Assembly: GCA_965227345.1 (NCBI GenBank)
Contig: OZ245755.1
Location: forward strand, 286,527-350,526
DNA from: Sphingomonadales bacterium
GTDB lineage: Bacteria; Pseudomonadota; Alphaproteobacteria; Sphingomonadales; G965227345
Direction of reading: 5' to 3'
DNA: 64,000 nt
A program made the position numbers and the translations under genes. Positions 6,068-34,666 of the stretch are shown one piece after another; positions within the stretch are counted from its first letter, which is position 1; the number at the start of each line of letters is the position of its first letter. The notes under the pieces are model-generated. The model was not told the origin of the DNA. It searched no databases and saw nothing but the letters and a program-made list of their open reading frames with translations.

Positions 6068-6841
6068 CTATTGGACCAAACCTGATTTTTTCATCAGCAT
6101 GTGGACATAAATAACGGGAATAGCAAAAGATATTCCCGTTGGCTCCGCCAATGCCCGTTCCTTTGTTTCCTTGACAAAGGTGCTGTTGAGAATGGCTTCC
6201 ACCTGGCCGGTCGCAACATCATATAAAGGACTTCCGCTGTTTCCCGGGAAAGCGGTCAGGTCCAGCTGGTAAACATCAAACGGCTTGCGCATAATCATGT
6301 TCGAGTTCAACAGGCGCGAATCTATCTGTGGAATTCTAACGGGCGTAATGGCCGCTATAATGCCCTGATGCGTGACCGGATATACACCGAGTATATTCCC
6401 AATCGGAAAACCTGTGACGGCGATATAGCTTCCTTCCGGCAGCAAAGACCCTCCACCAAGCTTCAAGGCAGGTAATGGATCGCCTTTCATCTTCAAAAGC
6501 GCCAGATCATGAACCGGGTCCAGGGCAACAACTTCAGCGTCACGATCGCTATACTTTGCCCCCCTGCCGGTAATCACGACAAGCTTCTCCAGATCTGATC
6601 CTTCCATTCTTTTCGACAGGACATGATAGTTGGTGATGACGTGCAGCCCGTCATGAATAACGAACCCTGTGCCCATGATCTCGACGGGCGGGCGTCTGAT
6701 GGCCTCAAATGTGCCAATGCCCACGATACTTTTTTTTACCACCGCTACAGTAGAGGAAAGCTTCGCCGATTTGGCCGGCTGGACGGCCAAACAACAAACC
6801 ACAATTGTCAGCCATATTATCCTGCCGAATGTTTCGGCCAT
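6068..6841 (-). CDS. Secreted trypsin-like (S1/chymotrypsin-fold) serine protease
   Basis: Signal peptide (IIWLTIVVCCLAVQPAKSA). Triad context: His in VITNYHV, Asp in HDLALLK, Ser in GNSGSPL. Its ATG overlaps the stop of the upstream amidotransferase by 1 nt at 6841. Confidence 0.75.
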   Translation of the reverse strand: MAETFGRIIWLTIVVCCLAVQPAKSAKLSSTVAVVKKSIVGIGTFEAIRRPPVEIMGTGFVIHDGLHVITNYHVLSKRMEGSDLEKLVVITGRGAKYSDRDAEVVALDPVHDLALLKMKGDPLPALKLGGGSLLPEGSYIAVTGFPIGNILGVYPVTHQGIIAAITPVRIPQIDSRLLNSNMIMRKPFDVYQLDLTAFPGNSGSPLYDVATGQVEAILNSTFVKETKERALAEPTGISFAIPVIYVHMLMKKSGLVQ

Positions 6842-8742
6842 TAGCCGGTTCCTTTCTGCATGTGACGAAGTGACGATTCAAACATTAACAAGGCCCAAAG
6901 GGCTGAACTGTGATTCCATGAACCTGACTGATGTTCATCAACCAGAGTTTCAAGATAATCCATATTGAACAACCCCGTATCCGCCAGGACAGAACTGCTC
7001 ATTGCTGTTTTTATCTTGTCTTTCAATGGCCCGCGGAACCAGTCTTCAATGGGAACGGCAAATCCCATTTTGTCACGATACAGAATATTATCAGATAAAT
7101 GGCCCTGAAGCGACTTCTTGAATATATGCTTGCCTTCCCGTCCCTGCAAGCGCAGCTCTGATGGAATTTTTGTCGCCCATTCCAGAAAATGATGATCAAG
7201 GATAGGCACGCGCACTTCCAGCGAATGCGCCATGCTCGCCCGATCTACCTTGGTCAGGATGTCACCGGGCAGATAGGTTTTCATATCCGCATACTGAATA
7301 CGCGACAACTCGTCGTCCACCGGTGCATTGTCCATAACATTGCGCAATACCTCAACAGCATTATAGCCCTGAAGGTCACTTTTCATGGACGAGCTGAACA
7401 TACATTGCCGAAATGCTGTTGGCAAAATTGACACGCTATGGAAATAGGCTTCAGCGGGGTCCATTGCCAGCGCCTGAAACGTGGTTTTTGCCCGAAGAAA
7501 TTTGGGGGCCCAGTCAAGCTTTGGATAATGTCTGCCCAGAAACCCGAACACCGGTCCGCGCAAGCCTTGCGGCAAAATATCGCGAATACGCTGCTCATAA
7601 GCGTGCCAGCGATGGCGCCGATATCCGGCAAATGCCTCGTCACCCCCGTCCCCCGACAGGGAAACAATGACCTGCTCTCTTGCAAGCTGGCAAACCCTGT
7701 AAGTTGGCATCGCCGAGCTGTCGGCAAAGGGTTCATCATACATGGCCGCCAATTGATCAATCAGGTCAAAATCATCCGGATCAACCTGGCGGGTGTGATG
7801 GTTTGTCTTGTACTGTTTGGCGACCTCTTCCGCATAGCTGGTCTCATCATAATTCGGACGATCAAATCCGATGGAATAGGTATTGATCGGATCCGGGGAC
7901 AGGCCTGCCATCAGCGCAACAATTGAACTTGAATCAACGCCACCTGACAGGAATGCCCCTAATGGCACATCGGCAACCATGCGGATACGCACCGCTTCGC
8001 GCAGCCGCTCGATCAGTTCTTCACAGATATCAGCCTCTGAAAGCCCGATATGATGACGGAAGGATATGTCCCAGTATTCATGAGGACTGGCCGGAGCCGC
8101 ACCATGTTTTTGTTCCAGTGCATGGCCGGGAGACAATTTGAATATGCCCTTGTAGATGCACTTGGGATCTGGAATATAGCCGTAGGCAAAATAGTCTTCG
8201 ACAGCCCGCGGGTCCAGCTCTCTCGGCAGATCAGGGTGCAACAGCAGCGTTTTCAGTTCCGACCCGAAGATCAGGGTGCCGTCCTTCAGAAAAGAATAAT
8301 AAAGCGGCTTGATACCCAGTCTGTCACGCGCCAGAAACAGGGTCTCCCGTTCTGTATCCCAAATAGCAAAAGCGAACATGCCACGGAACTGATGGACACA
8401 TTCCCTGCCCCATTCAGACCAGGCATTCACAATCACTTCCGTGTCACAATGAGTGTGAAATTTGTAACCGCGTTCGATCAGGTCCTGCCGCAAGCTCTGA
8501 AAATTATAAATTTCACCATTATAGACAACCACAACGGTTTTGCTCTCGTTGAACAGCGGCTGCTGGCCGCTCTTCAGATCGATAATGGACAGCCGCCGAT
8601 GCCCCAATCCAATACCCGGTGCGGTATACAGACCACTTTCATCCGGTCCCCGGTGCGTTTGCGCGTCATTCATCCGCCCCAGTAAATTACGGTCGATTTC
8701 CGCTTTGCCGTGAATATCAAAAATACCAACCAGTCCACACAT
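6841..8742 (-). CDS. Asparagine synthetase B-type, glutamine-hydrolysing amidotransferase (XrtA/PEP-CTERM-system type)
   Basis: N-terminal MCGLVGIF (Ntn nucleophile Cys2 present) and the PP-loop SGGVDSS. 633 aa. Lies next to xrtA. Confidence 0.9.
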   Translation of the reverse strand: MCGLVGIFDIHGKAEIDRNLLGRMNDAQTHRGPDESGLYTAPGIGLGHRRLSIIDLKSGQQPLFNESKTVVVVYNGEIYNFQSLRQDLIERGYKFHTHCDTEVIVNAWSEWGRECVHQFRGMFAFAIWDTERETLFLARDRLGIKPLYYSFLKDGTLIFGSELKTLLLHPDLPRELDPRAVEDYFAYGYIPDPKCIYKGIFKLSPGHALEQKHGAAPASPHEYWDISFRHHIGLSEADICEELIERLREAVRIRMVADVPLGAFLSGGVDSSSIVALMAGLSPDPINTYSIGFDRPNYDETSYAEEVAKQYKTNHHTRQVDPDDFDLIDQLAAMYDEPFADSSAMPTYRVCQLAREQVIVSLSGDGGDEAFAGYRRHRWHAYEQRIRDILPQGLRGPVFGFLGRHYPKLDWAPKFLRAKTTFQALAMDPAEAYFHSVSILPTAFRQCMFSSSMKSDLQGYNAVEVLRNVMDNAPVDDELSRIQYADMKTYLPGDILTKVDRASMAHSLEVRVPILDHHFLEWATKIPSELRLQGREGKHIFKKSLQGHLSDNILYRDKMGFAVPIEDWFRGPLKDKIKTAMSSSVLADTGLFNMDYLETLVDEHQSGSWNHSSALWALLMFESSLRHMQKGTG

Positions 8743-8792: not shown

Positions 8793-10421
8793 TTAGTAAT
8801 TACGTTCCACCAGAAGGCTGGAAAGGCCCGGCTGAATGGGTTCAAGATGATTCAGAAAATCCTGCAGAACTGCATCCTTGTGGTCATTAAGGGCAATGTC
8901 TCCAACGGAAATGGCAATTACCGCACCGTCCTGCGGCCCCCCAAGCAATTTGGCCTGAGAAGTCAGGAGTTTTTCCTTAAACTTGTTGGCCGTAAACCTG
9001 TCATTGACCCAATACCAGTACCAGATACGTCGCTGATCATACCGGGCCACGGCCGTAACCGCCTGTACTTTCATTTTTTTGCCGTCAACATCCGCTTCAA
9101 CTTCAGCAGATGAAGACCAGTCCCAGGGATCTGGGGCAATAACGGAATTTCCAAATTGAACAAGTTCCGCTTGGGTACGCTGATATTTATAATATCCCAG
9201 ATACAAACTGATCGTTGCACCATCGTCACGGCTGTAATGCTGTACGATCTCTGCATCTACGCCCCTGAATTCAGGCTTCCATTCGTATCTGCTTATCACT
9301 TCGTCAACTTTGTGCCAGGGTCCGGAAACATCCGGGGCCGACAGTTGCGCCACGGGTCCAACTGGCACGCGTTGATCAATGTAGGCTGCGTAACTTGATC
9401 CGATATTGGCAGCCAGAACAGCCAGCGCTGCAATTGCGACCAGGGAAAATGTGGATGTACCGGAAGACCGGGTTGACAGCCGGTCAGGGTCGACAACCGA
9501 TGACCCAACAGGACGGTCCATAAATGACATGCCAATGGACAGGAACAGGAGGGTGACAAAGGCAAAGAATATCCAGCCGTAAATCAGATGATCAACACCC
9601 AAAGCATATTCATTATCTGTCAGATAGGCGATCATGATAATGCCATAGGCACGAAAACCGTTCGATACAATCGGAACAATAACCGAAAGCAGAATAACGA
9701 TGGCCCGGCGGCGCCAGCTAATAAATGCAATATTTGCAAACAGGACCCCCAGCGTAATCGACGCAATCAGGAACCGGACACCCGAACAGGCTTCAGCCAC
9801 ATGGAAGTCACCATTGGGTACAGAGATAAACACGCCGTCGCTATAAACGGCCAATCCGCTAACCTGTAACAACCAGACCGTCATAACGGCTGTAATATCC
9901 TGCATTTTCGGCACAAGAAAATCGCCAAAAGGCACGGCAAAAAGCAGAAAGAAGATCGGGAAAATCATCACCCGGGCAAAGGCCATGCCAAAGACCGTCA
10001 GAACACTGGCCTGCAACATGAACGCCAGACTGAACTGCTTGATCACCGACGCCTCGGCCACACTGCCAAAAAGCCAGAGAAGACTGGCCAGCCCCATACA
10101 CAACAGGCCCCAGTATGAAGGCGCAGGTAGCAATCGGGCAAAAACTTCCCGCCGTTCCCAGACCAGATATGCGATGATTGGCAGAATAAGAAAACAGTGA
10201 TTGAATGTCGCTGATTCCCACCATGTGACGACAATCGCCTCTACCGTGGGCCAGAAGGACATGACAAGGGCGGTAACAGTTAGCAACCAGATGGCACCGG
10301 CACGCAACCAGTATTCACGGTGATAGGCTGACATGGTTGCACCCTGGGAAGTTTTCACTTCAGTGTCCGTCTGTTCAGTACTGTTCTTGTCATTTATCAT
10401 GTTAGCAGACATTTCCGGCAT
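8793..10421 (-). CDS. xrtA: Exosortase A (XrtA) fused to a C-terminal EpsI-like domain
   Basis: Polytopic N-terminal part with exosortase motifs: Cys in AEACSGVRF (codon 9786-9788), NGFRAYG and a His in GVDHLIYGW. A roughly 200-aa soluble C-terminal domain follows a final TM helix. The exact start codon is uncertain. Confidence 0.85.
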   Translation of the reverse strand: MPEMSANMINDKNSTEQTDTEVKTSQGATMSAYHREYWLRAGAIWLLTVTALVMSFWPTVEAIVVTWWESATFNHCFLILPIIAYLVWERREVFARLLPAPSYWGLLCMGLASLLWLFGSVAEASVIKQFSLAFMLQASVLTVFGMAFARVMIFPIFFLLFAVPFGDFLVPKMQDITAVMTVWLLQVSGLAVYSDGVFISVPNGDFHVAEACSGVRFLIASITLGVLFANIAFISWRRRAIVILLSVIVPIVSNGFRAYGIIMIAYLTDNEYALGVDHLIYGWIFFAFVTLLFLSIGMSFMDRPVGSSVVDPDRLSTRSSGTSTFSLVAIAALAVLAANIGSSYAAYIDQRVPVGPVAQLSAPDVSGPWHKVDEVISRYEWKPEFRGVDAEIVQHYSRDDGATISLYLGYYKYQRTQAELVQFGNSVIAPDPWDWSSSAEVEADVDGKKMKVQAVTAVARYDQRRIWYWYWVNDRFTANKFKEKLLTSQAKLLGGPQDGAVIAISVGDIALNDHKDAVLQDFLNHLEPIQPGLSSLLVERNY

Positions 10422-19072: not shown

Positions 19073-19717
19073 TCAAAAGAAGCTTTCCGGCACGACGATA
19101 ACATCACCAGGCATAATAGAGACGTTCGCTGATGTATCCCCGTCTTTCAACAGGTCATCAATGCGCACACCATACTCACGCTGCGTTCCACTTTGATGAC
19201 GGACAAGAACAGCACGGTTTCCTGACGCAAATTCCGTTAATCCGCCAACCGAGATCATCACATCAAGCAAGCTCATATTTGCGCGGTAAGGAATTGCCTG
19301 AGGCTGCGCAGCGGCACCAACCACACGTACCTGCTGACTGAATGGCCCCACAAACCCGGACACAATAACAGTCACAATCGGGCTTTGGATATATGTTGCA
19401 AGCTTTTCCTCTACATCACGAGCAAGCTTTGTAGGGGTTTTGCCAGTTGCAATCATATCATCAATGAGGGGAACGGAAAAACGACCGTCCGGACGAACCG
19501 TTACGGTGCTGGACAGCTCAGGATTACGCCAGACAAAAATCTGCAGCGAATCAAGAGGGCCAATAATGTATTCAGGCCCTGGGCCTTCATTCTCTGACAC
19601 AAAGTTAGCAGCCGGAAGGGAAGAGTTGCTTCCAGAGCAGGATGCCAGGAACAGCCCCACTGCACCAAGTACGAAAATTTTGAAAATCATACCACTTTTA
19701 TTAAATGCGGCTTTCAT
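19073..19717 (-). CDS. Wza-like polysaccharide export lipoprotein (Poly_export + SLBB)
   Basis: Lipobox GLFLASC after ATG 19717. Motifs YIIGPLDSLQIFVW, RPDGRFSVPLI and IMPGDVIVVPE. The ORF-track N-terminal extension to 19831 is probably not translated. Confidence 0.85.
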   Translation of the reverse strand: MKAAFNKSGMIFKIFVLGAVGLFLASCSGSNSSLPAANFVSENEGPGPEYIIGPLDSLQIFVWRNPELSSTVTVRPDGRFSVPLIDDMIATGKTPTKLARDVEEKLATYIQSPIVTVIVSGFVGPFSQQVRVVGAAAQPQAIPYRANMSLLDVMISVGGLTEFASGNRAVLVRHQSGTQREYGVRIDDLLKDGDTSANVSIMPGDVIVVPESFF

Positions 19718-20022
19718 ATCGAGCGACAGTTTCACGACTGCGTCCCCTTTGTTGTGTAAACGGACCATATTTTCCGTCAAGTTTCTCTCAAAATCCGGCA
19801 TCAGAACGATCAGAAGCACACGCCACGTCACCGAATAGCTTTTACTCTACTTTAACAAGAATATCTGACAATATTACCAATATCAGTCAATAGTTTAAGA
19901 AATATTGATATAGCAGCCCAATTTATGACATTTGTGACAGTCTGCATAGATTTTATTGTCAAAATAGTCTTGAGCATCTGTCTGGCTGACTATTTTTACA
20001 AGGTCGCCATATTAGCTCATAT

Positions 20023-21915
20023 TCAACCCTTTTGTCTATTTTTCAGCAAGTTTCCTTGCGATTTTTGTTCTGTGTGCTTTTCAATCCACATATCAAGCAT
20101 GGCAATGTCCCACGCCATGCCATCTGTTGGCGAAGCCGTTGATTTTTGGCAATCCGATATCAGGCGATCAAGAAAGTCATTGCGCAGATATCCATGGCGA
20201 CGAAAATCTGAAATCCGGTCCAGGATCAGGGACTGCAAATTAGCATCCTGCTTTATCCAGACGTTGAAGGGCAATCCAAATCCGTGCTTTTCTTTCTTCA
20301 GCACTTCATCCGGGAGAAAATCTTTCATGGATTGCTTGTAGAAATGCCGCAACTTCATACCTGGCAACAACAAACTGGAGGGAATGCTGGCCGCGAAGGC
20401 AACAAGTTCATCATCAAGCAACGGATAGCGAACCTTAACACCGGCCAGCTGGCACATCTTGTTGACCTTGCGCAAGTCATTGTCCGCCAGTGTGATTTTA
20501 AGGTCCAGATGCATCATACGCTGAAGCATGGTCACAGATTTGGGTCGCAGATAGGCCTCTCGCAGGATATCCATCGGTTCATTAACATTGATATCGTCCA
20601 GCACATCGGCGCTCAGCACATCACCCGGCGTGCCATCGGCCAGAAAATTATGGGCGTAAATCCTCTCCGGCATGGGTGTCGCGAACCGTTCCGCCAGCCT
20701 GCGGGCCTTGCGCACCGGTGGAACAACCCCAAGACCCGGCAGTTTGGTCAGTGGTTCCATAATTCCAGATCGTATCCAACCCGGAATATGCCCGTAGGAT
20801 TCAATCCGTTTCATATACGCATAACGTTCGTTTCCGGCGAATATTTCATCACCGCCGTCCCCGGCCAAAAGTGTGGAAACCCCGTTGTCCCGAGCGGCCC
20901 TGGCGCAATAGAAAGCGGGCACCGCCGACGTATTGCCATATGGTTCATCGTAAACTTCAGCAATTTTAGGCATAAGGGACACCACATCATCAGGTGTCAC
21001 AAAATATTCGTGGTGGTCGGTCCTGAAATGTTCCGCCACCAGCCGCGCATATGCGCTTTCGTCATATTCCGGTTCGCGAAATCCAATGGTAAATGTTTTG
21101 GCATGTTCTCTCTGGCGGGATAAAAGGCCAGCCACAGTACTGCTGTCCAGCCCTCCACTCAAAAAGGCGCCAACTTCATTCCCGGCATCGCAGCCTTCAA
21201 CATATTTACTGAAATTCTTGTCGAGACACCCCCAAAGACGCTCTTTCCATTCCTCCATGTCACCAGATCGGGCAAGCGAATATGGCATTTCCCAGTAAAA
21301 CCGGGTCGTGATCCGGCCGGCCTTGAAATGAACAAGTTGCGCCGGCAGCAGCTTGGACTGCTCCCGGTAAATGGTTCCCGGTGACGAGACAATGTAATTG
21401 AACAGATAATTGTATATTGCCTGGTTTGATATCGTCGATGCCATATCAGGGTGGCATTTTACAGCGTCAGTCGTCGTGCCAAAACAAAAGAGGCCATTCG
21501 GGCCCTGACCGTAAACCAGCCCGTGTATGCCCATTCTGTCAATGGCGATTGTCGCCTCGCCGCTTTCCCTGTTGATGATCGCGACAGAGAAGGCACCATG
21601 CAAACGTTCAAAAACAGCTTCGCCATAAAGCTTGTACCCGTCTGCAAAGGCTTTGGCGTGCCCCAGGCTGTTCGCCGTATCCTGCAAGGCAGCGTCATTC
21701 CAGATTGGTTCACCGTCAATTGAACACATGACAGGCCCGGCGCACCAGACGTTGCCGGCACTTTTCAACGCGACAATACCTGCCGACGACAATGCTTCAC
21801 CAAGACCTTCCGGATGTGGATTAACCAGATCAAGTCCGGTCGCCATATTTTTGAGAATTACTTCGGGCGGAACGTCATGTGTATGTCCACCAACCCAACC
21901 TGCAATACCCATCAT
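20023..21915 (-). CDS. Asparagine-synthetase-family paralogue lacking the N-terminal catalytic Cys
   Basis: PP-loop SGGLDSS and the AsnB C-terminal domain are present. The N-terminus reads M-M-G-I-A-G where AsnB enzymes have M-C-G-I-A-G. Confidence 0.85.
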   Translation of the reverse strand: MMGIAGWVGGHTHDVPPEVILKNMATGLDLVNPHPEGLGEALSSAGIVALKSAGNVWCAGPVMCSIDGEPIWNDAALQDTANSLGHAKAFADGYKLYGEAVFERLHGAFSVAIINRESGEATIAIDRMGIHGLVYGQGPNGLFCFGTTTDAVKCHPDMASTISNQAIYNYLFNYIVSSPGTIYREQSKLLPAQLVHFKAGRITTRFYWEMPYSLARSGDMEEWKERLWGCLDKNFSKYVEGCDAGNEVGAFLSGGLDSSTVAGLLSRQREHAKTFTIGFREPEYDESAYARLVAEHFRTDHHEYFVTPDDVVSLMPKIAEVYDEPYGNTSAVPAFYCARAARDNGVSTLLAGDGGDEIFAGNERYAYMKRIESYGHIPGWIRSGIMEPLTKLPGLGVVPPVRKARRLAERFATPMPERIYAHNFLADGTPGDVLSADVLDDINVNEPMDILREAYLRPKSVTMLQRMMHLDLKITLADNDLRKVNKMCQLAGVKVRYPLLDDELVAFAASIPSSLLLPGMKLRHFYKQSMKDFLPDEVLKKEKHGFGLPFNVWIKQDANLQSLILDRISDFRRHGYLRNDFLDRLISDCQKSTASPTDGMAWDIAMLDMWIEKHTEQKSQGNLLKNRQKG

Positions 21916-21960
21916 TCGCCGTACACCTGTATCCAAATTATCCGAGAGACCGTATTGTTT

Positions 21961-23196
21961 CTAAACCAGCACTTCGACGGGGGCAGGATGCCCCAAAAAG
22001 GCTGTCGGGCTTGATGTCAATCCATAGGCACCGGACTGGAAAACGGCAACCAGGTCGCCAACCTCACCTTTTGGCACCATTATTTTGTCACCCAGACGGT
22101 CAAGTGGCGTGCACAGACACCCCACAATGTCGGCCTGCTCTACGGGTTCAAGGCCCATCTTGTTTGCAATGGCCACCGGGTAATTTTTCCGGATGACCTG
22201 ACCAAAATTTCCGGATGCGGAAAGTTGGTGATGCAAACCGCCATCCGTGATCAAGAAGACCTGGCCACGCGATTCCTTGCGATCCACAATACGCGATATG
22301 TAGACCCCTGCCTCACCGACGATATATCGGCCCAGCTCAACAACAATTTCAGCACCTTCCAGTTTTTCCAGTGCCGGGGGTAAAAGCTCTGCCAGTCTGT
22401 CACCGACCATATGAAGGGGTAAATCCTTGTCACCCGGAAAATACGGGATGCCAAAGCCCCCGCCAATATTGACCATACGCGGCGCACGCGGCGCAGACTT
22501 GCTTAAAGCGGCCGCCAACTCAAGCGCCTTTTCCTGTGCTTCGGAAATTGCTTCGTGCCGTAAATTCTGTGATCCACTGAATATGTGAAAGCCCCAAAAA
22601 TCGAGCCCCAACTCACCCAGGCGACCAAGCATGGCTGGCACCTTTTCAGCATCCACACCAAACTGCTTTGCGCCACCGCTCATACGCATACCCGAAGCTT
22701 TAAGCTCGAAATCCGGATTAACCCTGACGGCCACCCTGGCATTTACGCCCTGACCTTCGCAAAGCTCCGCAATGATTTCCATCTCATTTTCAGATTCCAT
22801 ATTGATCACAATGCCCGCGCCAACAGCCTGTGACAATTCAGCACGTGTTTTGCCCGGGCCAGCAAAGCTGATCAGTTCGGGATTGATACCAGTGTCCAGC
22901 GCCACTTTCATTTCGCCTGCCGAAGCCACATCAAGACCATCTGTGATCCCGGACAAATGCTGGACGACCGCCGGCATGGGGTTGGCCTTCATGGCATAAT
23001 GGATCTGTATTTCCCGGGGTAGCGCCTTACGCAATTCTTCAATCCGACCGGTCAACAGCGCCCTGTCATAGGCAAAAAACGGGGTTGACCCCACACGATC
23101 GGCAAGACGATCGACGTCAACACCGCCTATGGTCAGCTTGTTATTCTCGACGCCAAACCCCTTCAGGGGCGCGTGAACGGGCATTTCCTTATTCAT
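21961..23196 (-). CDS. Fold-type III PLP-dependent decarboxylase (Orn/DAP/Arg decarboxylase family), exosortase-A-associated type
   Basis: PLP-lysine context YAMKANP, plus GGGFGIPY and the C-terminal beta-barrel region (VGCLCTPLD). Its start overlaps the ligase stop (ATGA). Confidence 0.85.
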   Translation of the reverse strand: MNKEMPVHAPLKGFGVENNKLTIGGVDVDRLADRVGSTPFFAYDRALLTGRIEELRKALPREIQIHYAMKANPMPAVVQHLSGITDGLDVASAGEMKVALDTGINPELISFAGPGKTRAELSQAVGAGIVINMESENEMEIIAELCEGQGVNARVAVRVNPDFELKASGMRMSGGAKQFGVDAEKVPAMLGRLGELGLDFWGFHIFSGSQNLRHEAISEAQEKALELAAALSKSAPRAPRMVNIGGGFGIPYFPGDKDLPLHMVGDRLAELLPPALEKLEGAEIVVELGRYIVGEAGVYISRIVDRKESRGQVFLITDGGLHHQLSASGNFGQVIRKNYPVAIANKMGLEPVEQADIVGCLCTPLDRLGDKIMVPKGEVGDLVAVFQSGAYGLTSSPTAFLGHPAPVEVLV

Positions 23197-24791
23197 GGGG
23201 CTTTTGCCTTTTCCATTTCACTGAGTAGTTCTTCTGAAACCAGTTTGCGATCAATCTTGCCATTCGGGTTTCGTGGCAGATTTTCCCGCAGGTGTATTTG
23301 ATGCGGCACCATATAAGTTGGCATTTCCTGCCGACAATAGGCCCGCAATGTATCCTCTTCAAATACCTTGCCATCTCGCGCAGTGACAACCACCACAATC
23401 GACTGACCCAGTTTGTCATCGGACACGCCCATCGCAATCACCTCGGCAACCAGTCCGCTGGCATAAATCACTTCTTCCAGCTCCGTCGGGCTCACCCTGA
23501 AACCGGAGGTTTTGATCATCTCGTCATTCCGGCCAACGAAGTACAGAAAGCCATCCTTGTCCATCCGCACCTTGTCACCTGACCAGACCGCAATTTCCGT
23601 CAGGGGAATACCGGAAGGCTGTGCAGGGGCCGGTTTAAAGCGTTCAGCCGTACGCGCCGGATCATTCCAGTAGCCCAAGGCCACCAGCGCCCCGCGATGA
23701 ACCAGTTCACCAACTTCGTCCGGATCGCATGGCTCGCCATTTTCCCGCACAACCATAATCTCGGCATTCGGGATGGCCTTGCCAATAGAATCAGGCCTGC
23801 GATCAATTTCTTCAGGCGGCAGATAGGTTGACCGGAAAGCTTCCGTCAACCCGTACATAAGATAAACCTTCGTTTTCGGCAAAACGCTGCGCAACCGATC
23901 GACAATCGGGCGCGGCATACGACCCCCGGTGGTGGCGACATAGCGCAAGGTTTGCGCTGTTTCTTCGGGCCAATCCAGATCAGCAAGCTGAATCCACAAC
24001 GGCGGCACACATGTCAAACCGGTGATTTTGTGCGTCACAATCTGTTTAATGACATCGCGTGGCAAAAGATAATTCATCAGGACCACTTCGGCACCGGCAC
24101 AAAAACCGGTTGTCAGCTGGCTCAGCCCTGCATCAAAACTGAGCGGCAACACCGACAGGATGCGGTCATCTGCACTATTTTCAAGATACTGCGCAACACT
24201 GCGGGCCCCTGCAACCATATTACGATGGGAAAGCGTTACCCCCTTGGGCATTCCTGTACTGCCTGACGTGTAAAGGATGGCGGTCATATCCGTATCGATT
24301 GTGCGATGTACAGGCAAACCATCTTCACGGCCCCTGCTCACAAGATCGGGCCATGTCATGAATTCAATGCCTTCAAGGGCAATATCCGGGACATTGTTGT
24401 CTGTTACCACGATGTAACGCAGATCAGGACATTCTGATAAGATCTCGGCCAGACCCGCAAGCCGGTTGTTGCTGATCACCAGCACACGAACATTACAATT
24501 GGCGAGGATATAGCCCACCTGACGCGGCTTTAACGCAGGATTAACTGGCACAAAGGTACAGCCCCCTGCACTGGCACCAAACATGGACGCCACTGTTTCC
24601 ATCTGCTTGGGCAAATAAACGGCAACACGGTCAAACCGGGCAAGTCCCAGCGACATCATGGCTTTGGCAAAGACCTCTACTTCATCTGCAAGTTGGGCAT
24701 AAGTCCATATTTGATCCCGGTACACAAGCGCTCTGGCATCCGGGTTGCGGGCGGCGGACGCCCTGATCAGGTCTGGTAAAAGTTCAGTCAT
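23193..24791 (-). CDS. AMP-forming adenylating enzyme (acyl-CoA/acyl-carrier ligase), exosortase-A-associated type
   Basis: ANL-superfamily motifs: ILYTSGSTGMPKG, YGLTE, SGDKVRMDKDGFLYFVGRNDEMIK and PRNPNGKIDR. Confidence 0.9.
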   Translation of the reverse strand: MTELLPDLIRASAARNPDARALVYRDQIWTYAQLADEVEVFAKAMMSLGLARFDRVAVYLPKQMETVASMFGASAGGCTFVPVNPALKPRQVGYILANCNVRVLVISNNRLAGLAEILSECPDLRYIVVTDNNVPDIALEGIEFMTWPDLVSRGREDGLPVHRTIDTDMTAILYTSGSTGMPKGVTLSHRNMVAGARSVAQYLENSADDRILSVLPLSFDAGLSQLTTGFCAGAEVVLMNYLLPRDVIKQIVTHKITGLTCVPPLWIQLADLDWPEETAQTLRYVATTGGRMPRPIVDRLRSVLPKTKVYLMYGLTEAFRSTYLPPEEIDRRPDSIGKAIPNAEIMVVRENGEPCDPDEVGELVHRGALVALGYWNDPARTAERFKPAPAQPSGIPLTEIAVWSGDKVRMDKDGFLYFVGRNDEMIKTSGFRVSPTELEEVIYASGLVAEVIAMGVSDDKLGQSIVVVVTARDGKVFEEDTLRAYCRQEMPTYMVPHQIHLRENLPRNPNGKIDRKLVSEELLSEMEKAKAP

Positions 24792-25129
24792 GGTTATCAG
24801 TTACTATTATAGTTTCCGGGGCATTGTGATGTTATGTAATTGATTTACGGTCATTACGCTGATTGTCATATCGGCCAATCTAGTATTTGAATATTAGGAA
24901 AGTATGAATTTCCGGATGTTTTCATCAATATCATGCCTCTGGTGTTAACCACGTCCATTAACCATAATAACCTAATTGAAACGCGTCAGGATTGAAACAT
25001 CTCTGAACAGTGAAAATGGAAAGAATATGACGATCTTTTGTCAAGATCCGATTCGTAAACTGGATTTTAAGATTGAATGTGGGTATATGCCCCTGAAGGA
25101 CAGCACCAATCAAGGAACGGGATTCAGAG

Positions 25130-25378
25130 ATGAGCACACAGGGAAAAGTCAGAGAAATTCTTCGCAGCACGCTGCAACTGGGCGCAACAGCGGATACGCT
25201 TGAGCCTTCAACACCGCTACTGGGTAATCTGCCCGAGCTTGATTCGATGGCCGTTGCAACACTTGTGGCTGCGCTTGAAGAAAATTTTGATATTTACATT
25301 GATGACGATGAAATCAGTGCTGAAACATTCGAAACTTTTGGCAGCCTCTGTGAATTTGTCGACGAAAAAACAAGCTGA
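25130..25378 (+). CDS. Acyl/peptidyl carrier protein 1 (82 aa)
   Basis: Phosphopantetheine-attachment context LGNLPELDSMAVATLVAALEE. Four-helix carrier-protein size. Confidence 0.8.
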   Translation: MSTQGKVREILRSTLQLGATADTLEPSTPLLGNLPELDSMAVATLVAALEENFDIYIDDDEISAETFETFGSLCEFVDEKTS

Positions 25379-25406
25379 TTCTGGTCCCGCCAAAAGGTAG
25401 TCTGTT

Positions 25407-26114
25407 GTGCCCATGCCGTTTTACAGGTCGATAAGCAATACATTGCGTGAACTGGGCTGGCGCACGACGATGGTTCATGCAACCGACCGTATTTTGCGGG
25501 CATTAAATATCGGTCATATGTTCCGTTACGTGTTTTATCACCAGCCGGTTGCAGAACCGGTTGATCGCCGGTTTTTGTCGAGAACACTTCAATGTCGTGA
25601 GCTTGAAGCCGCTGACCTGGCGCTGTTACCCGAAGGCCCGGACGTTATTAACTACCGTCTTTCCGAAGGCGGAATCGCTGTCGGGGCCTTTAAGGATGGC
25701 GAATGCATTGCAACCCTTTGGTATACCATGGATATCTATAACGAAGACGAAGTCAGGGCCCGCTATCAGCCCCTGCCTCATGGCTCTTCCGCATGGGACT
25801 TTGGTGTCGGCGTCGCGCCCCAATACCGGATTGGCCGGACTTTTGTAACCTTGTGGGATGCCGGTATGGCATCAATGCGATCACACGGTTGCACAGCAAG
25901 CTTCAGCCGTATCAATGCAACCAATGCGGCTTCCATTACATCACACGCAAAACTTGGTGCCCGACCGCTGGGTTGCGCCACCTTCCTCACGTTGGGACCG
26001 GTACAGGTCGCCTGGTCATCACACACACCACGTTTTCATATTTCGCTCTCAAAAAATGCCATCCCGCTCTACCAGCTGCAGGCACCCGTTTCCCAATCCG
26101 GTCCCCAGGCCTGA
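25407..26114 (+). CDS. GNAT-like acyltransferase (divergent)
   Basis: The segment GVGVAPQYRIGRTFVTLWDAGMASMRSHGCTASFSRINATNAASITSHAKLG resembles GNAT motif A plus the following helix and strand. The match is weak and made by eye only. Start is GTG 25407 or ATG 25413. Confidence 0.45.
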   Translation: MPMPFYRSISNTLRELGWRTTMVHATDRILRALNIGHMFRYVFYHQPVAEPVDRRFLSRTLQCRELEAADLALLPEGPDVINYRLSEGGIAVGAFKDGECIATLWYTMDIYNEDEVRARYQPLPHGSSAWDFGVGVAPQYRIGRTFVTLWDAGMASMRSHGCTASFSRINATNAASITSHAKLGARPLGCATFLTLGPVQVAWSSHTPRFHISLSKNAIPLYQLQAPVSQSGPQA

Positions 26115-26190
26115 GCAAGCTGGATTTTTACACCAGAGGTGACTATAAATCAGTCAATACAATACATAGCGAGCATAAAGTGAGGCGCAA

Positions 26191-26451
26191 ATGACAATAG
26201 ACGACAGGGTGCGAGACGTGTTGCGCAATACCCTTCAGCTGGGAGAACAGGCAGATTCCTTTACCGAATCCACGCCCCTGCTCGGCAACCTTCCGGAACT
26301 GGACTCCATGGCTGTTGCAACATTGGTGGCGTCGCTGGAAGAGACATTTGATATTTATATCGAAGACGATGAAATCAGCGCGGAAACCTTTGAAACCTTT
26401 GGCAGCCTTTGCGCCTTTGTTGACGAAAAAGCCGACGTTCAGACAATATAA
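26191..26451 (+). CDS. Acyl/peptidyl carrier protein 2 (86 aa), paralogue of carrier protein 1
   Basis: Same LGNLPELDSMAVATLVASLEE motif. By hand alignment, 62 of 82 positions are identical to carrier protein 1. Confidence 0.8.
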   Translation: MTIDDRVRDVLRNTLQLGEQADSFTESTPLLGNLPELDSMAVATLVASLEETFDIYIEDDEISAETFETFGSLCAFVDEKADVQTI

Positions 26452-26493
26452 AGTCAGGTTTATTTTGACCACCAGACAGATTCGGATTGTGTT

Positions 26494-27306
26494 TTGAAGC
26501 CCTTGTTTCTGGAAACGCCTGCAGGTCGCATATTCGGGGTTTATCATGCCCCCGCTTCTGATATGCCGGATCATGGCGATATCATTTTCCTGCCGCCTTT
26601 TGCCGAAGAGCTGAACCGCGCGCGTCATATGATTAATCGTCAGGCCGCGAGTTTAAGCGCCGGGGGATATGGCGTTTTTATTCCTGACCTTTATGGCACC
26701 GGGGATAGCGAAGGTCGCTTTGATGAAAGTGGCTGGACGGAATGGGTCCAATCAATCGAAGCAGCACAATCCTGGCTTCAGGGTCAGGGGCGATCACGCA
26801 TATCCTTCTGGGCGATGCGCACAGGGGCGCTCCTGCTGGAAGATATTCAACTACAGGCCGGTACACCTTTCATTCTCTTGTGGAATCCGGTCTCCAACGG
26901 CGACACTTTTCTTAACCAGTTCCTGAGAATTCGAGTGTCTGGCGAGATGAGCGGCCAGCACAAGGAAACAACCAAAGAGCTAAGAGCCAGACTGACTGAT
27001 GGCGAGATTATTGAAGTGGGTGGCTATGGCCTGAATGGCCAGCTGGCGCATGATATATCCGGGAAGCGCCTGAAAAATTTTGCTGTTCCCCCTGCCTCCC
27101 GCATCATCTGGCTTGAAGTCGCGGCTACCAGTCCGGCCAGCCTGTCGCCTGCGGGTGAAAAACATATATCCCACTGGCAGGACAGCGGAGCGAATGTTCT
27201 GGGCACCTCCGTTACCGGCCCCATGTTCTGGGTTCTTCAGGAACCGGAATGGGCGGACGAGTTGCTGACGACGACCACCCGCCTTGTGCAGGATGTAAAA
27301 CAATGA
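26494..27306 (+). CDS. Alpha/beta-hydrolase-fold protein (exosortase-A-associated hydrolase 2 type)
   Basis: Topology pattern IIFLPPF ... DLYGTGDS ... ISFWAMRTGA. TTG start. Its stop overlaps the next gene's ATG. Confidence 0.6.
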   Translation: MKPLFLETPAGRIFGVYHAPASDMPDHGDIIFLPPFAEELNRARHMINRQAASLSAGGYGVFIPDLYGTGDSEGRFDESGWTEWVQSIEAAQSWLQGQGRSRISFWAMRTGALLLEDIQLQAGTPFILLWNPVSNGDTFLNQFLRIRVSGEMSGQHKETTKELRARLTDGEIIEVGGYGLNGQLAHDISGKRLKNFAVPPASRIIWLEVAATSPASLSPAGEKHISHWQDSGANVLGTSVTGPMFWVLQEPEWADELLTTTTRLVQDVKQ

Positions 27307-28166
27307 CGGCAGGCCGCGAAACCACCTTTACGTTTCAGGTTGATGATACCGAGTGTATCGGCATTGTGCATATGCCTGCGCAGATAAACAAAAGCGGTGT
27401 CGGCGTGATTATTCTGGTAGGTGGCCCACAATATCGGGTTGGCCCTCATCGCCAGTATGTTCATCTTGCCCGCCATCTGGCGCGCAACGGCATCCCGGCC
27501 ATGCGTTTTGATTTTCGGGGCGTAGGTGACAGCGATGGTCCCTACCCCGGCTTTGAAAATGTCGGCGATGACCTGAATGCAGCGGTGGCTGCCTTCAGGG
27601 AACACGTGCCCGCCGTGGAAAAAATCATCCCCTGGGGCCTGTGCGAAGGCGCATCTTCCATTCTCCTGACACTTTCAGATCACCCGGATATTGCAGGCGC
27701 CATACTTGCCAACCCCTGGGTGCGCACCCGGTCGGGGCTGGCAAAGGCCCACCTGAAGCATTATTACGGCAAACGATTTCTGGATATTGACTTCTGGAAA
27801 CGACTTTTTACCGGCAAGGCAAACCCTTTCAAAATCATCAAGTCATTGTCCTCCACCGTTCAAAACCTCTTCCGTCCAAAAGAAAAGGCCACGGGAGAGA
27901 TGCTGCCCTTCCCGGACAGGATGGCAAAAGGCCTCAACCAGTTTAACAAGCCTGTGTTGCTTGTTCAAAGCGGCAACGATCTGGTTGCGCGCGAGTTTGA
28001 TGATCTCACCCGGAACAACCCGAGCTGGGACGCGCTGAACAATGAGAATGTGACCCGATATGACCTGACCGGATCAGACCATACCTTTTCGGCCGAAAAA
28101 TGGCGCAGGGAAGTTGCAGAGCAATCAGAAACCTGGATCAGGCAGCTTTACGATACAGATCCCTGA
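27303..28166 (+). CDS. Alpha/beta-hydrolase-fold protein with a G-x-C-x-G nucleophile elbow (exosortase-A-associated hydrolase 1 type)
   Basis: VIILVGGPQYRVG ... FDFRGVGDS ... WGLCEGAS (Cys codon 27642-27644) ... SGNDLV ... GSDHTF. Confidence 0.7.
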   Translation: MTAGRETTFTFQVDDTECIGIVHMPAQINKSGVGVIILVGGPQYRVGPHRQYVHLARHLARNGIPAMRFDFRGVGDSDGPYPGFENVGDDLNAAVAAFREHVPAVEKIIPWGLCEGASSILLTLSDHPDIAGAILANPWVRTRSGLAKAHLKHYYGKRFLDIDFWKRLFTGKANPFKIIKSLSSTVQNLFRPKEKATGEMLPFPDRMAKGLNQFNKPVLLVQSGNDLVAREFDDLTRNNPSWDALNNENVTRYDLTGSDHTFSAEKWRREVAEQSETWIRQLYDTDP

Positions 28167-29142
28167 CTTTAATTGGTGAAGAAGCTTCGCCCCCGATCTC
28201 ATTGATAAAAAATGAGAAATACTGATCCATCTTTTCCAGAAATGCATCCCGATCTTCTGCCGATTTTACATAGGGTGAGCCGCCGGGCAGAAGCGATGAA
28301 CTGTGATATGTGTAACTGAATATCCTGTTGCCGCGCGCAAGCAACGCGCGGGTAAGGCGCTTGTGCTCCGTCAGGGAAATCCCCTCCGGGGTCAAATTGA
28401 TCCGCTCACACAGGCCAAGGCGCGACAATATACCCGGCAGATGCAGCTTGATACCGGCCGGGCGGGCGATCACGGGGTGAATATGATGCCCCCAACGACC
28501 CAGCACACCCGAAAACCCGCTTGTTAACGGCACTTCCAATAATTCTGCCTTGCTGCCAAACCAGTAAGGTTGATCAGGCAATCCCCTGAAATTGGGGCCC
28601 AGTTCCTTGCTAAAATCTGTATGTGGCACCACACTCGCGTCAATTTCATACCCCAGCTTTTCCAGTATTGCCGTCGTTGCCGGGCCATAACCATAACGAC
28701 CCGCTTTATATATGACCGGTCGTTTTCCAATATTTTCGGTGATCAGGTCTGTCAGGTTCACAAGCTTTTTCTCTTCAAGCCCGGCCGGCAAATTTCCCGG
28801 ATAGGAATTGTGCTCGTTCACCTTTTCATCATACGGCGGATTGACCCAGGGGTGCAAATGCGTCCCGACAATACAGCGGGATTCGCGTTGTAGATTGCGG
28901 AAGATTTCTGCCGATACATCCGTAGATGCCACGGGATGATCAATGACATAGGTGGGCACAATGCCATGTCGTTCAAAGACGTCCTGGGCGCGCAACTGTT
29001 CCGGAATACATTTCACGGATCTGTTTTCACGAGCAAACCTTGCCGACCAGTCGAATTCCTCTTCCGTATCAATAACAACGACCAGCTGCGGCCTGATATC
29101 TTTCGGCGCAAGCGGTGTCTCGGACGGTTCAGGATGGATCAT
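28138..29142 (-). CDS. WalW-like / polysaccharide-deacetylase-like protein
   Basis: N-terminal LVVVIDTEEEFDWS pattern. A 334-aa soluble protein, convergent with hydrolase 1 (29-nt 3' overlap). Confidence 0.55.
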   Translation of the reverse strand: MIHPEPSETPLAPKDIRPQLVVVIDTEEEFDWSARFARENRSVKCIPEQLRAQDVFERHGIVPTYVIDHPVASTDVSAEIFRNLQRESRCIVGTHLHPWVNPPYDEKVNEHNSYPGNLPAGLEEKKLVNLTDLITENIGKRPVIYKAGRYGYGPATTAILEKLGYEIDASVVPHTDFSKELGPNFRGLPDQPYWFGSKAELLEVPLTSGFSGVLGRWGHHIHPVIARPAGIKLHLPGILSRLGLCERINLTPEGISLTEHKRLTRALLARGNRIFSYTYHSSSLLPGGSPYVKSAEDRDAFLEKMDQYFSFFINEIGGEASSPIKVRDLYRKAA

Positions 29143-32098: not shown

Positions 32099-33382
32099 AT
32101 GAATTTTCAAATGAGTATGAAAGAGAGATTAACCCGATTCTTTCGCGATCTGGATGCAAGGGTGGCCGATCACGTCGGCCCCATACGTGTGTTATTTGTC
32201 GTTCGCAATGAAATCGGCTTTGCCAATCAGGCGCCTGTCATCCGGGAGATGCTCAACAGTCGCGAGATTTCCATACGCACCATGCCTGACACCGAAACGG
32301 GATCTGTTTTATTTACTGACCCGGAATTGAAATCCCTGTACCAAAGCCTTGAAATCGCCCCGATAACAGCTGTCTTCAGGAAATGGCATTATCGAATTTG
32401 TACCGACATGTTAAATACCTATTTCAAGCGGGATTCAATTCATATCACGATCGGACACGGCGCCTCGTTTGGTAATCTGGCAGCGGGTAAGGACTGGATC
32501 ACCCAGCAGGCACTGCAACCCTCGCTGAGTATGCTTTTTGGCACCAGCCCCTGGTTAAAAAAGCATATAGAATCAGGGCATCCCGGCCTCTTCAATCCGG
32601 AAAAGAAACTGTTTATTGCAACAGGGTTCCCCAAGCTTGATGCGCTGGTGAATAATACATTCTCACGAGAGGAAACACTGGCGGCACTTGGCTTGCCAAC
32701 TGACCGGAAAACCGTTCTGGTCACCTCGCACTGGACACCATCATCCATCCTTGCCACGTGGAAGGAAAACATTATTGACAATCTGGCACCATTGGATGAT
32801 GAATTGAATGTCATTGTAACTGCGCACCCCAATCTCTGGAATGAAGTTGAGGAAAACGGTCTGGATGGCCAAAAACTGTGGCAACAACTAAAAGTCAGGG
32901 AACAGGAACATACGAATATTCGTGTTATAAAGTCTGGCAATTCCCTGAAATTGTTACACGCAGCTGACCTGCTGATTTTTGATAACAGTTCAATTCGGGT
33001 AGAATATTCAGCTCTGGATCGCCCCGCCCTGTTTTTCAAGAACCCCGATCATCATTTTTTTTCGCCCGTCACACAAAAACTGTATGAAGAAAGTGCTGAC
33101 TGTTTTTCGTCTCTGGATAATTTTGCCGAACTGGTTCTCGCCGCTTTGGAAAACCCGGAACGGAATATGCAGGGGCGCAGGGCCTTGCAGGATTATTTTC
33201 TTTGCAATGTCGGTAAAAGTTCAAAAACAATCACTGACATCATATTGAAGGTTGGCAGGATATCAAATCAAAGGTCTGCGAACTGGTCAAAGGCGGCGTC
33301 GCTGTATACCCGAAGCGGTCAGGAAAATGCAAAATCTGACACCCGGATAGAAAGTTCTGCCGTCTATCCATCTACACAGTAA
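32099..33382 (+). CDS. TagB/TagF-like (CDP-glycerol glycerophosphotransferase fold) protein, paralogue 1
   Basis: Colinear with the TagF catalytic-domain landmarks: IGHGASFG, GFPKLD, VLVTSHWT, VTAHPNLW and ADLLIFDNSSIRVEYSALDRPALFF (compare D-x-LITDYSS ... FD ... L-x-KP-x-IFF). Confidence 0.55.
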   Translation: MNFQMSMKERLTRFFRDLDARVADHVGPIRVLFVVRNEIGFANQAPVIREMLNSREISIRTMPDTETGSVLFTDPELKSLYQSLEIAPITAVFRKWHYRICTDMLNTYFKRDSIHITIGHGASFGNLAAGKDWITQQALQPSLSMLFGTSPWLKKHIESGHPGLFNPEKKLFIATGFPKLDALVNNTFSREETLAALGLPTDRKTVLVTSHWTPSSILATWKENIIDNLAPLDDELNVIVTAHPNLWNEVEENGLDGQKLWQQLKVREQEHTNIRVIKSGNSLKLLHAADLLIFDNSSIRVEYSALDRPALFFKNPDHHFFSPVTQKLYEESADCFSSLDNFAELVLAALENPERNMQGRRALQDYFLCNVGKSSKTITDIILKVGRISNQRSANWSKAASLYTRSGQENAKSDTRIESSAVYPSTQ

Positions 33383-33451
33383 TTTGTCCTCTCTTTCCCG
33401 CCGAATTAGTGTAACCTTGCAGACCGGTTTACACTCGAACACAAGTCTGCA

Positions 33452-34666
33452 ATGAACATTAAAACCAGGGTTCTTTCAGGAATACGGCTGCTTGACGACA
33501 TGATCACGGAGCATTTTGGTCCGATCAGGGTGATTTTTGTTGTCCGAAACGAAATGGGTTTTGCAAATCAGGCCCCCGTTATCCATGAGCTGGAGAAAAA
33601 CCCGGAAATAATGATCGCCACAACCTCTGACGGTGAGGAGAATGATTTTCACTTCGAGGATGATGCCCTTCGCATTTTATATGAAAAATATAAAATCTCG
33701 CCGATTACCGCAGTTTACAAGAAATGGCATTATCTTGTTTGTACCGATATCCTGAATCTATATTTCCGTCGGGATGCTGTTCATGTTGCCATCTCACACG
33801 GATGTTGCTTCGGCAATGGCAACGAACGAACAAACTGGATTGTAAACGAAGCATTACAGCCTTCCGTGAAAATGGTATTCGGCCATAGTCCCTGGCTCAA
33901 GCACTATATCGAGGAAACAGCCCCGAAGGCATTTGAAACCGGTGACAAGCTGTTCTTTGCCACGGGCTTTCCAAAGCTGGACTCTCTGTACAACGGCAAA
34001 TATTCGCGTGATCAAACGCTTGGGTCTTTTAACCTGTCTCCGGCGCGGAAAACAATCCTGATCAGCTCACACTGGACCCCCACATCGCTTCTGGCAACAT
34101 GGCAGGAAAAGATTGTTCAAAGTCTTGTGAACATCGCAGCAGACTATAATATTATTGTCACCGCCCATCCAAAATTATGGAAGATCAACAGTTCGGATGG
34201 ATTCAATGGGAAAATACTGTGGAAAAAGCTGAAAGAAATTGAAGAATCAAATGCAAATATCAGAGTAACACAGTCCAGCAATTCCCTCAGTCTGCTAAAT
34301 GCCACCGATTTACTGATATGTGACAACAGCTCCATACGTGTTGAATATGGTATTCTGGACCGCCCGGCACTGTTGTTCAAACACCCCGATTTTCAGTTCT
34401 TCTCACCGGTTACACAAAATTTGTATGAAGACAGCTCGTCCTGCTTCTCGTCACTGGAGAATTTCCAAAATCTGGTGCAACATACGCTGGAGCATCCGAT
34501 GGAGAAAACGTCGGGCCAGTTGGCACTCAGAGATCATTTCCTGCATAATCCTGGGAATGCCGCCAAATGCATATCTACAATTATCGAAAAAACAGGGCGC
34601 ATATCAAGCCCTAATTCTCCAGCCTGGAAAAAAGCCGTCAAATTAAGCAAACAAATGTCAGGTTAG
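33452..34666 (+). CDS. TagB/TagF-like protein, paralogue 2
   Basis: Similar over its full length to the preceding gene: ISHGCCFG, GFPKLD, ILISSHWT, VTAHPKLW and TDLLICDNSSIRVEYGILDRPALLF. Confidence 0.55.
   Translation: MNIKTRVLSGIRLLDDMITEHFGPIRVIFVVRNEMGFANQAPVIHELEKNPEIMIATTSDGEENDFHFEDDALRILYEKYKISPITAVYKKWHYLVCTDILNLYFRRDAVHVAISHGCCFGNGNERTNWIVNEALQPSVKMVFGHSPWLKHYIEETAPKAFETGDKLFFATGFPKLDSLYNGKYSRDQTLGSFNLSPARKTILISSHWTPTSLLATWQEKIVQSLVNIAADYNIIVTAHPKLWKINSSDGFNGKILWKKLKEIEESNANIRVTQSSNSLSLLNATDLLICDNSSIRVEYGILDRPALLFKHPDFQFFSPVTQNLYEDSSSCFSSLENFQNLVQHTLEHPMEKTSGQLALRDHFLHNPGNAAKCISTIIEKTGRISSPNSPAWKKAVKLSKQMSG

Follow-up and report, generated by a model that had tools for sequence, protein, structure and literature searches.

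Asparagine synthetase-like proteins lacking the N-terminal cysteine form a clade in genomes with exosortase A

Many environmental and wastewater bacteria form flocs and biofilms, a process driven by their exosortase A (XrtA)/PEP-CTERM systems. This work deals with a gene from the XrtA locus of a Sphingomonadales bacterium, which is located at positions 20023 to 21915 on the minus strand of a 64,000-nucleotide stretch of contig OZ245755.1 (referred to as the window throughout). Its product, here termed AsnB2, is related to asparagine synthetase B (AsnB) and has no cysteine in the position of the catalytic nucleophile of that enzyme. With AsnB2 as its representative, a coherent XrtA-restricted clade of asparagine-synthetase-fold enzymes is defined which, judging from their residues, would be unable to use glutamine. 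The clade is an XrtA-restricted, full-length variant among the known glutaminase-dead relatives of AsnB. While the general phenomenon is already familiar, a lineage from polysaccharide loci is added to it, and this lineage provides a concrete handle on polysaccharide decoration, namely one gene for one predicted ATP-dependent amide-forming step.

Closest in setting are the proteins of family TIGR03108, among which WbqG and PGN_1234 are required for uronamide formation and WbpS has been proposed to do the same (PMC7468200). Genes resembling vimA (FemAB), vimE (deacetylase) and wbpS are carried by XrtA loci, and it has been speculated that the PEP-CTERM acceptor is an amino-acid-modified sugar (PMC7468200). 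The psc1 cluster of Rubrivivax contains three genes named wbpS, two of them with biofilm-abolishing transposons. The window encodes a TIGR03108 protein of its own, with which AsnB2 shares the two-domain architecture, the length, 27% identity over 597 residues, the residues of the ATP site and the niche in an XrtA locus. On the other hand, the Cys-less clade lacks Cys1, Arg49, Asn74 and Asp98 (E. coli AsnB numbering), mostly also Glu76, and is split from TIGR03108 by a branch with a support of 100. A TIGR03108-like trait of the Cys-less form is its occurrence in XrtA genomes only (301 genomes sampled), about a quarter of the sampled XrtA genomes being carriers.

Among solved structures, the hydroxyamidotransferase TsnB9 (7ylz) is the best match to AsnB2 both by sequence (E 3.4e-27) and by structure, and the N-terminal strands of the two, G-[VI]-A-G-W-V, align without gaps. 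Residue 2 of TsnB9, which we take to be its N-terminal Cys, with a glutamine-like donor being used, is replaced by Met in AsnB2. E. coli AsnB and human ASNS have the fold (TMq 0.58), the PP-loop and Gly347, Asp351, Glu352 and Lys449 in common with AsnB2 and differ in that AsnB2 is devoid of the glutaminase site; identity in structural alignments amounts to about 14-16%.

In homologues from polyketide pathways an N-terminal Cys goes along with amide-nitrogen transfer (FdmV) and Ser or Ala with amino-acid ligation (PdmN and others), D-Ala or D-Ser being ligated by PdmN (bioRxiv 10.1101/2025.10.30.685158). Asparagine synthetase-like enzymes act on peptide C-termini too (PMC13622209). By analogy, AsnB2 would resemble the PdmN type, in which an N-terminal residue other than Cys is tied to amino-acid ligation onto a carboxylate. 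In contrast to the Cys-less clade, with its variable position 2 (T, S, A, I, K, G or M), PdmN-type proteins stem from actinomycete polyketide clusters. In beta-lactam and carbapenam synthetases and lasso-peptide cyclases, too, the glutaminase domain of an AsnB fold is dead, and amide formation proceeds via adenylation of a carboxylate. They differ in acting intramolecularly, in being more distant in sequence and structure and in having another genomic context.

The glutaminase and ATP sites of AsnB2

The gene and the parts of its product that bear on the two active centres are the following:

20023..21915, minus strand: Cys-less AsnB-family gene (AsnB2), an open reading frame translating to 630 amino acids plus stop
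21916..21963, minus strand: in-frame upstream stretch as far as TAG (21961-21963), with a Shine-Dalgarno-like AGGTG at 21924-21928, read from the sequence
21895..21915, minus strand: N-terminal codons M-M-G-I-A-G-W, with Met2 in the position of the nucleophilic Cys of AsnB, from translation and alignments
21271..21915, minus strand: degenerate N-terminal nucleophile (Ntn, glutaminase-like) domain, about residues 1-215, from alignments and the predicted model
20026..21270, minus strand: Asn_synthase (ATP pyrophosphatase) domain, about residues 216-630, with Pfam PF00733 over residues 244-612
21139..21159, minus strand: PP-loop SGGLDSS, from translation

A first-pass annotation of the window had reported that the protein begins with M-M-G-I-A-G and that no upstream start could supply a Cys-Gly N-terminus. 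Both observations hold. Codons 21895-21915 translate to MMGIAGW, and the upstream sequence in the same frame, KQYGLSDNLDTGVRR, reaches the TAG at 21961-21963, which is the stop codon of a decarboxylase gene, without a single Cys codon. An upstream start giving a Cys-Gly N-terminus is therefore rejected. The one start codon that precedes the ATG in frame is a TTG at 21936. The first ATG is likely to be the start of AsnB2, since homologues begin exactly there and AGGTG lies 8 nt 5' of it; the corresponding alignment column contains M in 101 of 114 homologues, with G3, I4, G6 and W7 in register. Promoter and terminator scans of 19700-25200 yielded counts within about 1.5 standard deviations of those for shuffled sequences.

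Residue 2 of AsnB2 pairs with residue 2 of TsnB9 when compared with solved structures by HMMER, and a MAFFT alignment places it opposite the Cys that E. coli AsnB and the window paralogue have there. The place of the nucleophile is therefore taken by Met2, and Gly3 corresponds to the conserved Gly next in line after the Cys, which settles the earlier wording that either Met or Gly stands there. Likewise, the view that a sequencing artefact is unlikely was well founded although its reckoning of at least two substitutions was not: neither TGT nor TGC shares a nucleotide with ATG at any position, three substitutions are required and a sequencing slip is even less likely than had been put forward. 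The paralogue at 6841-8742 (minus strand) begins with MCGLVGIF, as described before, and scores 1057 bits with TIGR03108; the PP-loop of AsnB2 was also correctly called intact.

The roles of Cys1, Arg49, Asn74, Glu76 and Asp98 in the glutamine site of AsnB are established (E. coli numbering). For a comparison of these residues and of the ATP site, 55 Cys-less sequences, 44 Cys-type paralogues from the same loci and the window paralogue were aligned with E. coli AsnB (NC_000913.3), with the following result:

Cys1: never Cys in the 55 Cys-less sequences; Cys in 44 of 44 Cys-type sequences
Arg49: never Arg in the 55 Cys-less sequences, loop deleted; Arg in 44 of 44 Cys-type sequences
Asn74: D, E, V or T in the 55 Cys-less sequences; Asn in 44 of 44 Cys-type sequences
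Glu76: mostly R, Q or Y in the 55 Cys-less sequences; Glu in 44 of 44 Cys-type sequences
Asp98: gap in 51 of 55 Cys-less sequences (loop deleted); Asp in 43 of 44 Cys-type sequences
PP-loop S-G-G-x-D-S: invariant in 55 of 55 Cys-less and in Cys-type sequences; final S of SGGLDSS in 54 of 55 Cys-less sequences
Gly347, Asp351, Glu352 and Lys449 equivalents: invariant in 55 of 55 Cys-less and in Cys-type sequences

The other glutaminase residues, the fate of which had been left to such an alignment, are thus lost as well across the 55-member clade. The AsnB2 protein of the window itself retains Glu in the Glu76 column; the N-G-E motif of its Ntn domain is replaced by G-x-P-x-W. Profile scores show the same imbalance between the two halves of the protein. 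Pfam Asn_synthase reaches 263 bits, and GATase_7 reaches 33.8 bits over residues 92-152 only. TIGR03108 yields 288.9 bits against a cut-off of 816.9, covering only profile positions 105-627, and TIGR01536 yields 227.1 bits, which is below its cut-off of 267.1. AsnB2 thus falls short of the models for AsnB, for TIGR03108 and for the related cyclases and has the PP-loop, the ATP site and the two-domain fold. Judged from these alignments, the glutaminase half of AsnB2 is non-working and the ATP half is under strong constraint. That the protein may adenylate a carboxylate and probably cannot hydrolyse glutamine, as originally suggested, is the natural reading, because the adenylating site is fully conserved and the glutamine site, including the Ntn nucleophile, is lost.

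An AlphaFold2 model of AsnB2, calculated with 44 family members as input, has a mean pLDDT of 93.1 and a pTM of 0.92. TsnB9 is the solved structure that Foldseek places closest to this model (TMq 0.73, TMt 0.80), E. coli AsnB and human ASNS, which like TsnB9 match it over the full length, reach a TMq of about 0.58, and carbapenam synthetase (CarA) and beta-lactam synthetase match with a TMq of 0.51-0.57. Weaker matches of the N-terminal domain, a beta-sandwich, are the Ntn glutaminase domains of GlmS and PurF. According to the model, the N-terminal domain has kept the Ntn-type sandwich and its active site has been dismantled.

Extent, distribution and genomic setting of the clade

None of the 120 best database homologues of AsnB2 has Cys at position 2, which is taken by T in 42, S in 32, A in 9, I in 6, K in 5, G in 5 and by others in the remainder. 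As far as sequences can tell, the loss of the Cys in AsnB2 is neither chance nor artefact. A profile of the N-terminal domain retrieved 479 representative clusters at E <= 1e-30 from 1.84 billion representatives searched. The lone MCG sequence among the best 150 representatives for this profile, P0234, was rejected as a Cys-bearing member of the clade; it turned out to be Cys-type, duplicated and chimeric, and its RRLSIIDL, NGEVYN and DTDTEV motifs are intact. Also rejected was the idea that Thr or Ser at position 2 serves as a substitute Ntn nucleophile. Roughly two thirds of the sequences have T or S, but A, I, K, G, M, N and D are found too and the pocket is gone; we read T and S as probably reflecting the usual preference for a small second residue. 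In a tree of 99 sequences a single branch with a support of 100 splits Cys-less from Cys-type proteins, and one state change explains the pattern. G6, W7, G68 and W72 are invariant residues of the N-terminal domain that are peculiar to the Cys-less family.

When AsnB2 was scored against NCBIfam, no model covering the clade was found, and no curated family model parts the clade from true amidotransferases. Public names of clade members range from 'asparagine synthetase B family protein' to 'asparagine synthase (glutamine-hydrolysing)'. The latter label, assigned automatically to many members, is wrong. No description of this clade was found in the literature.

Of 301 genomes sampled evenly across the phylum, 17 had XrtA above cut-off. 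The strong form of the Cys-less protein (more than 200 bits on the N-domain profile) occurs in 4 of these 17 genomes versus 0 of the 284 others; in this sample, the clade is restricted to XrtA genomes. Matches of 115-134 bits were rejected as members, since all six that were read begin with MCG and have glutaminase motifs; the profile cross-matches the conserved second half of the Ntn domain. All five sampled relatives from the same order (G037, G049, G145, G193, G217) have exosortase A and no strong Cys-less paralogue. Such patchy presence among close relatives is consistent with an accessory, exchangeable tailoring function.

In the window, AsnB2 is the last gene of a same-strand string, in which the ligase gene overlaps the decarboxylase gene by 4 nt and a 45-nt gap separates the latter from AsnB2. 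Core XrtA genes lie downstream, encoding an exporter, a chain-length determinant, a tyrosine kinase, an outer-membrane protein and an ATPase, and further a deacetylase, a FemAB-like protein, the glycosyltransferase stp1, XrtA-EpsI and the TIGR03108 amidotransferase. The neighbours that matter in the following are:

21961..23196, minus strand: pyridoxal phosphate-dependent decarboxylase, exosortase A-associated (TIGR03099, 598.9 bits), directly upstream of AsnB2
23193..24791, minus strand: acyl-CoA/acyl carrier protein (ACP) ligase, exosortase A-associated (TIGR03098, 791.6 bits), its stop overlapping the decarboxylase start
25130..28166, plus strand: divergent operon for ACP1, a 235-aa protein of no known family, ACP2, hydrolase 2 (TIGR03101) and hydrolase 1 (TIGR03100)
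6841..8742, minus strand: canonical paralogue, XrtA/PEP-CTERM amidotransferase (TIGR03108, 1057 bits), beginning with MCGLVGIF
8793..10421, minus strand: exosortase A fused to EpsI (TIGR03109, 326.7 bits)

ACP, TIGR03098, TIGR03099, TIGR03100 and TIGR03101 are here referred to as the exosortase A accessory cassette. Its linkage to the Cys-less gene was followed in 80 loci from species-representative genomes, which are centred on a Cys-less gene in 62 cases and on an MCG-type gene in 18. Forty of the 62 are well-flanked, that is they have at least 7 kb on both sides. Some part of the cassette is located within 10 kb in 19 of these 40 loci, a cassette part or another XrtA marker is present in 28, and the decarboxylase gene is directly upstream in 5. 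On the family tree, cassette linkage is scattered, with 9 changes compared to 12.9 expected under shuffling. Of five genomes without the cassette at the Cys-less locus, three carry it elsewhere. The complete 3.3-Mb chromosome of G001 has XrtA and the Cys-less gene and no TIGR03098, TIGR03099 or TIGR03100 gene above cut-off, so that co-occurrence of gene and cassette is not constant. The same three families are lacking in the genome of G002, an incomplete metagenome-assembled genome (MAG) with a Cys-less gene; it has no XrtA match either, which may reflect incompleteness. GT4 glycosyltransferases are encoded in 43 of the 62 Cys-less loci, and Wzx-like flippases, Wzy-like proteins and FemAB-like GNATs are also common. 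Neighbour clusters 0 and 3 were polluted by antisense open reading frames in GC-rich loci, and only clusters with real Pfam matches were used.

A predicted amide-forming step and its alternatives

AsnB2 probably acts in the tailoring of the XrtA polysaccharide, as an enzyme that adenylates a carboxylate and forms an amide independently of glutamine; this assessment refers to the class of chemistry, and our confidence in any particular substrate is much lower. The N-terminal Ntn domain would be kept as a structural or binding module without hydrolysing glutamine. The C-terminal domain would use ATP for the adenylation of a carboxylate with release of pyrophosphate, and the acyl-adenylate would be captured by an amine other than ammonia made in cis from glutamine. 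A ligase-type amide synthetase is favoured because precedents exist in uronamide formation by TIGR03108 proteins and in the PdmN-type ligases. In analogy to the paralogue of the WbpS/WbqG type, the carboxylate may be that of a uronic acid, and the PdmN-type homologues suggest, again by analogy, that a primary amine such as an amino acid may be the nucleophile. The family is an accessory component of XrtA/PEP-CTERM exopolysaccharide loci, its neighbours being genes for glycosyltransferases, Wzx- and Wzy-like genes and the ACP/ligase/decarboxylase/hydrolase cassette; most likely, the step would therefore take place in the cytoplasm and tailor a precursor, either of the polysaccharide or of its protein-linking unit.

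Several points weigh against this proposal. The clade is known here from genes and a predicted model, and the likeness to PdmN was drawn from a published description of the N-terminus. The window encodes no UDP-sugar dehydrogenase, and the two of this genome are located about 2.8 and 3.3 Mb away; a uronic acid as substrate is therefore an analogy only. AsnB mutated at Cys1 keeps ammonia-dependent activity, so free ammonia may be the nucleophile. Finally, the Cys-less gene would not belong to a core step of the XrtA system, since only about a quarter of the sampled XrtA genomes carry it.

The first-pass annotation had suggested that the amine may originate from the adjacent decarboxylase. As a general rule this lacks support, given the rarity of the decarboxylase gene directly upstream (5 of 40 loci), genome G001 without any of the three cassette genes that were looked for (ligase, decarboxylase, hydrolase 1) and the scattered linkage. 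For this genome the idea is possible, with ligase, decarboxylase and AsnB2 forming one string on the same strand. Coupling of the adenylated carboxylate to an amine produced by the TIGR03099 decarboxylase, free or tethered to ACP, is nevertheless rather unlikely in our view. The BtrI/BtrK step of butirosin biosynthesis is a parallel for an ACP-tethered amine. The close arrangement in the window, with its 4-nt overlap and 45-nt gap, would fit such coupling. The order decarboxylase-then-Cys-less gene recurs in L001, L008, L023, L033, L047, L048, G188 and G282 of our collection of loci (L) and genomes (G), and hydrolase 2 and hydrolase 1 genes with ACP lie directly beside the gene in L012, L014, L018, L025 and L060. 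Furthermore, all three other strong positives of the phylum sample have TIGR03099, in two of them directly upstream. The complete G001 chromosome speaks against it, as does G002 within the limits of an incomplete MAG; so do the 21 of 40 well-flanked loci without any cassette part within 10 kb and the scattered linkage on the tree (9 changes, 12.9 expected). An ammonia-dependent amidotransferase, which would place a primary amide on a second carboxylate using free NH3/NH4+ or ammonia delivered by another protein, is unlikely. It would agree with a synthetase site near-identical in type to that of the TIGR03108 paralogue, including an Asp at the Glu348 position, with the ammonia-dependent synthesis known for Cys1-mutated AsnB and with the vicinity of TIGR03108 genes, which are found within 10 kb in 17 of 62 loci and directly upstream in L031 and L034. 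However, a full-size N-terminal domain with its invariants (G6, W7, G68, W72) is kept across hundreds of lineages, which would be unexpected if it had no role, and the characterised homologues that begin with a residue other than Cys act as ligases or cyclases rather than as ammonia-dependent amidases.

An intramolecular cyclase, closing a lactam or isopeptide ring within one substrate after adenylation of its carboxylate, is very unlikely. The structures of CarA and beta-lactam synthetase clearly match (TMq 0.51-0.57) and the models for lasso cyclase and macrolactam cyclase respond weakly; yet these scores stay far below the cut-offs (NF033535, 115.9 bits versus 525; NF033561, 49.4 versus 300), AsnB2 is nearer to TsnB9 and AsnB than to the cyclases, and the neighbours are polysaccharide genes, with no precursor-peptide or beta-lactam context seen. 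We consider it extremely improbable that AsnB2 is an inert pseudoenzyme that serves the active TIGR03108 amidotransferase as scaffold or as regulatory partner. Half of its active centres are dead and the two paralogues co-occur in XrtA genomes, sometimes side by side, but every tested residue of the ATP/pyrophosphate site is unchanged throughout the clade, an argument for the adenylation chemistry having been retained. A bolder reading has a very low probability in our estimation: AsnB2 would ligate an amino acid or a diamine onto a sugar carboxylate of the polysaccharide repeat or of the linking unit and thereby build the acceptor of exosortase A. The resulting free amine would then attack the XrtA acyl-enzyme, joining PEP-CTERM proteins to the slime. 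In the type IX secretion system, a linking sugar that bears an amino acid provides a parallel (PMC7468200).

Further genes of the window and of related loci

In two acidobacterial loci (L031:7740-11554 and L034:7808-11767) an MCG amidotransferase gene is located directly upstream of the Cys-less paralogue (MSGICGIC...), the two genes overlapping by 22 nt in L031 and being 3 nt apart in L034. This adjacency suggests that MCG and Cys-less paralogues act in one pathway or as a pair. In G001 (L003:10001-14825), genes for an MBOAT (AlgI/DltB-like) acyltransferase and for a 475-aa protein without a family come after the Cys-less gene on the same strand, and sulfotransferase, GT2 and GT4 genes come before it. 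Halioglobus and Haliea MAGs (L009:11752-16791 and L060:984-6038) have two tandem hydrolase 2-hydrolase 1 pairs beside the Cys-less gene.

The 235-aa protein encoded between the two ACP genes of the window (25407-26114, plus strand) has no Pfam or NCBIfam match and is conserved beside the cassette in at least eight other loci with 33-40% identity. Another open reading frame without a family match, of 334 aa (28138-29142, minus strand), has a homologue of 52% identity in L001, from a Kiloniellaceae MAG, where it immediately follows the Cys-less gene. Inside the XrtA locus at 32099-34666 (plus strand) are two adjacent TagF-like genes of the CDP-glycerol glycerophosphotransferase family (Glyphos_transf, about 49 bits each), adjoining a UDP-GlcNAc 2-epimerase gene and a Wzy-like gene. 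The same genome carries a third AsnB-fold gene outside the window (G000:C1:2179800-2181530, locus L090), which also has no N-terminal Cys motif. Among family models it matches the albusnodin/ikarugamycin macrolactam cyclase best, at 89.7 bits and thus far under the cut-off of 300; it scores 74.6 bits with Pfam Asn_synthase and may encode a peptide or macrolactam cyclase.

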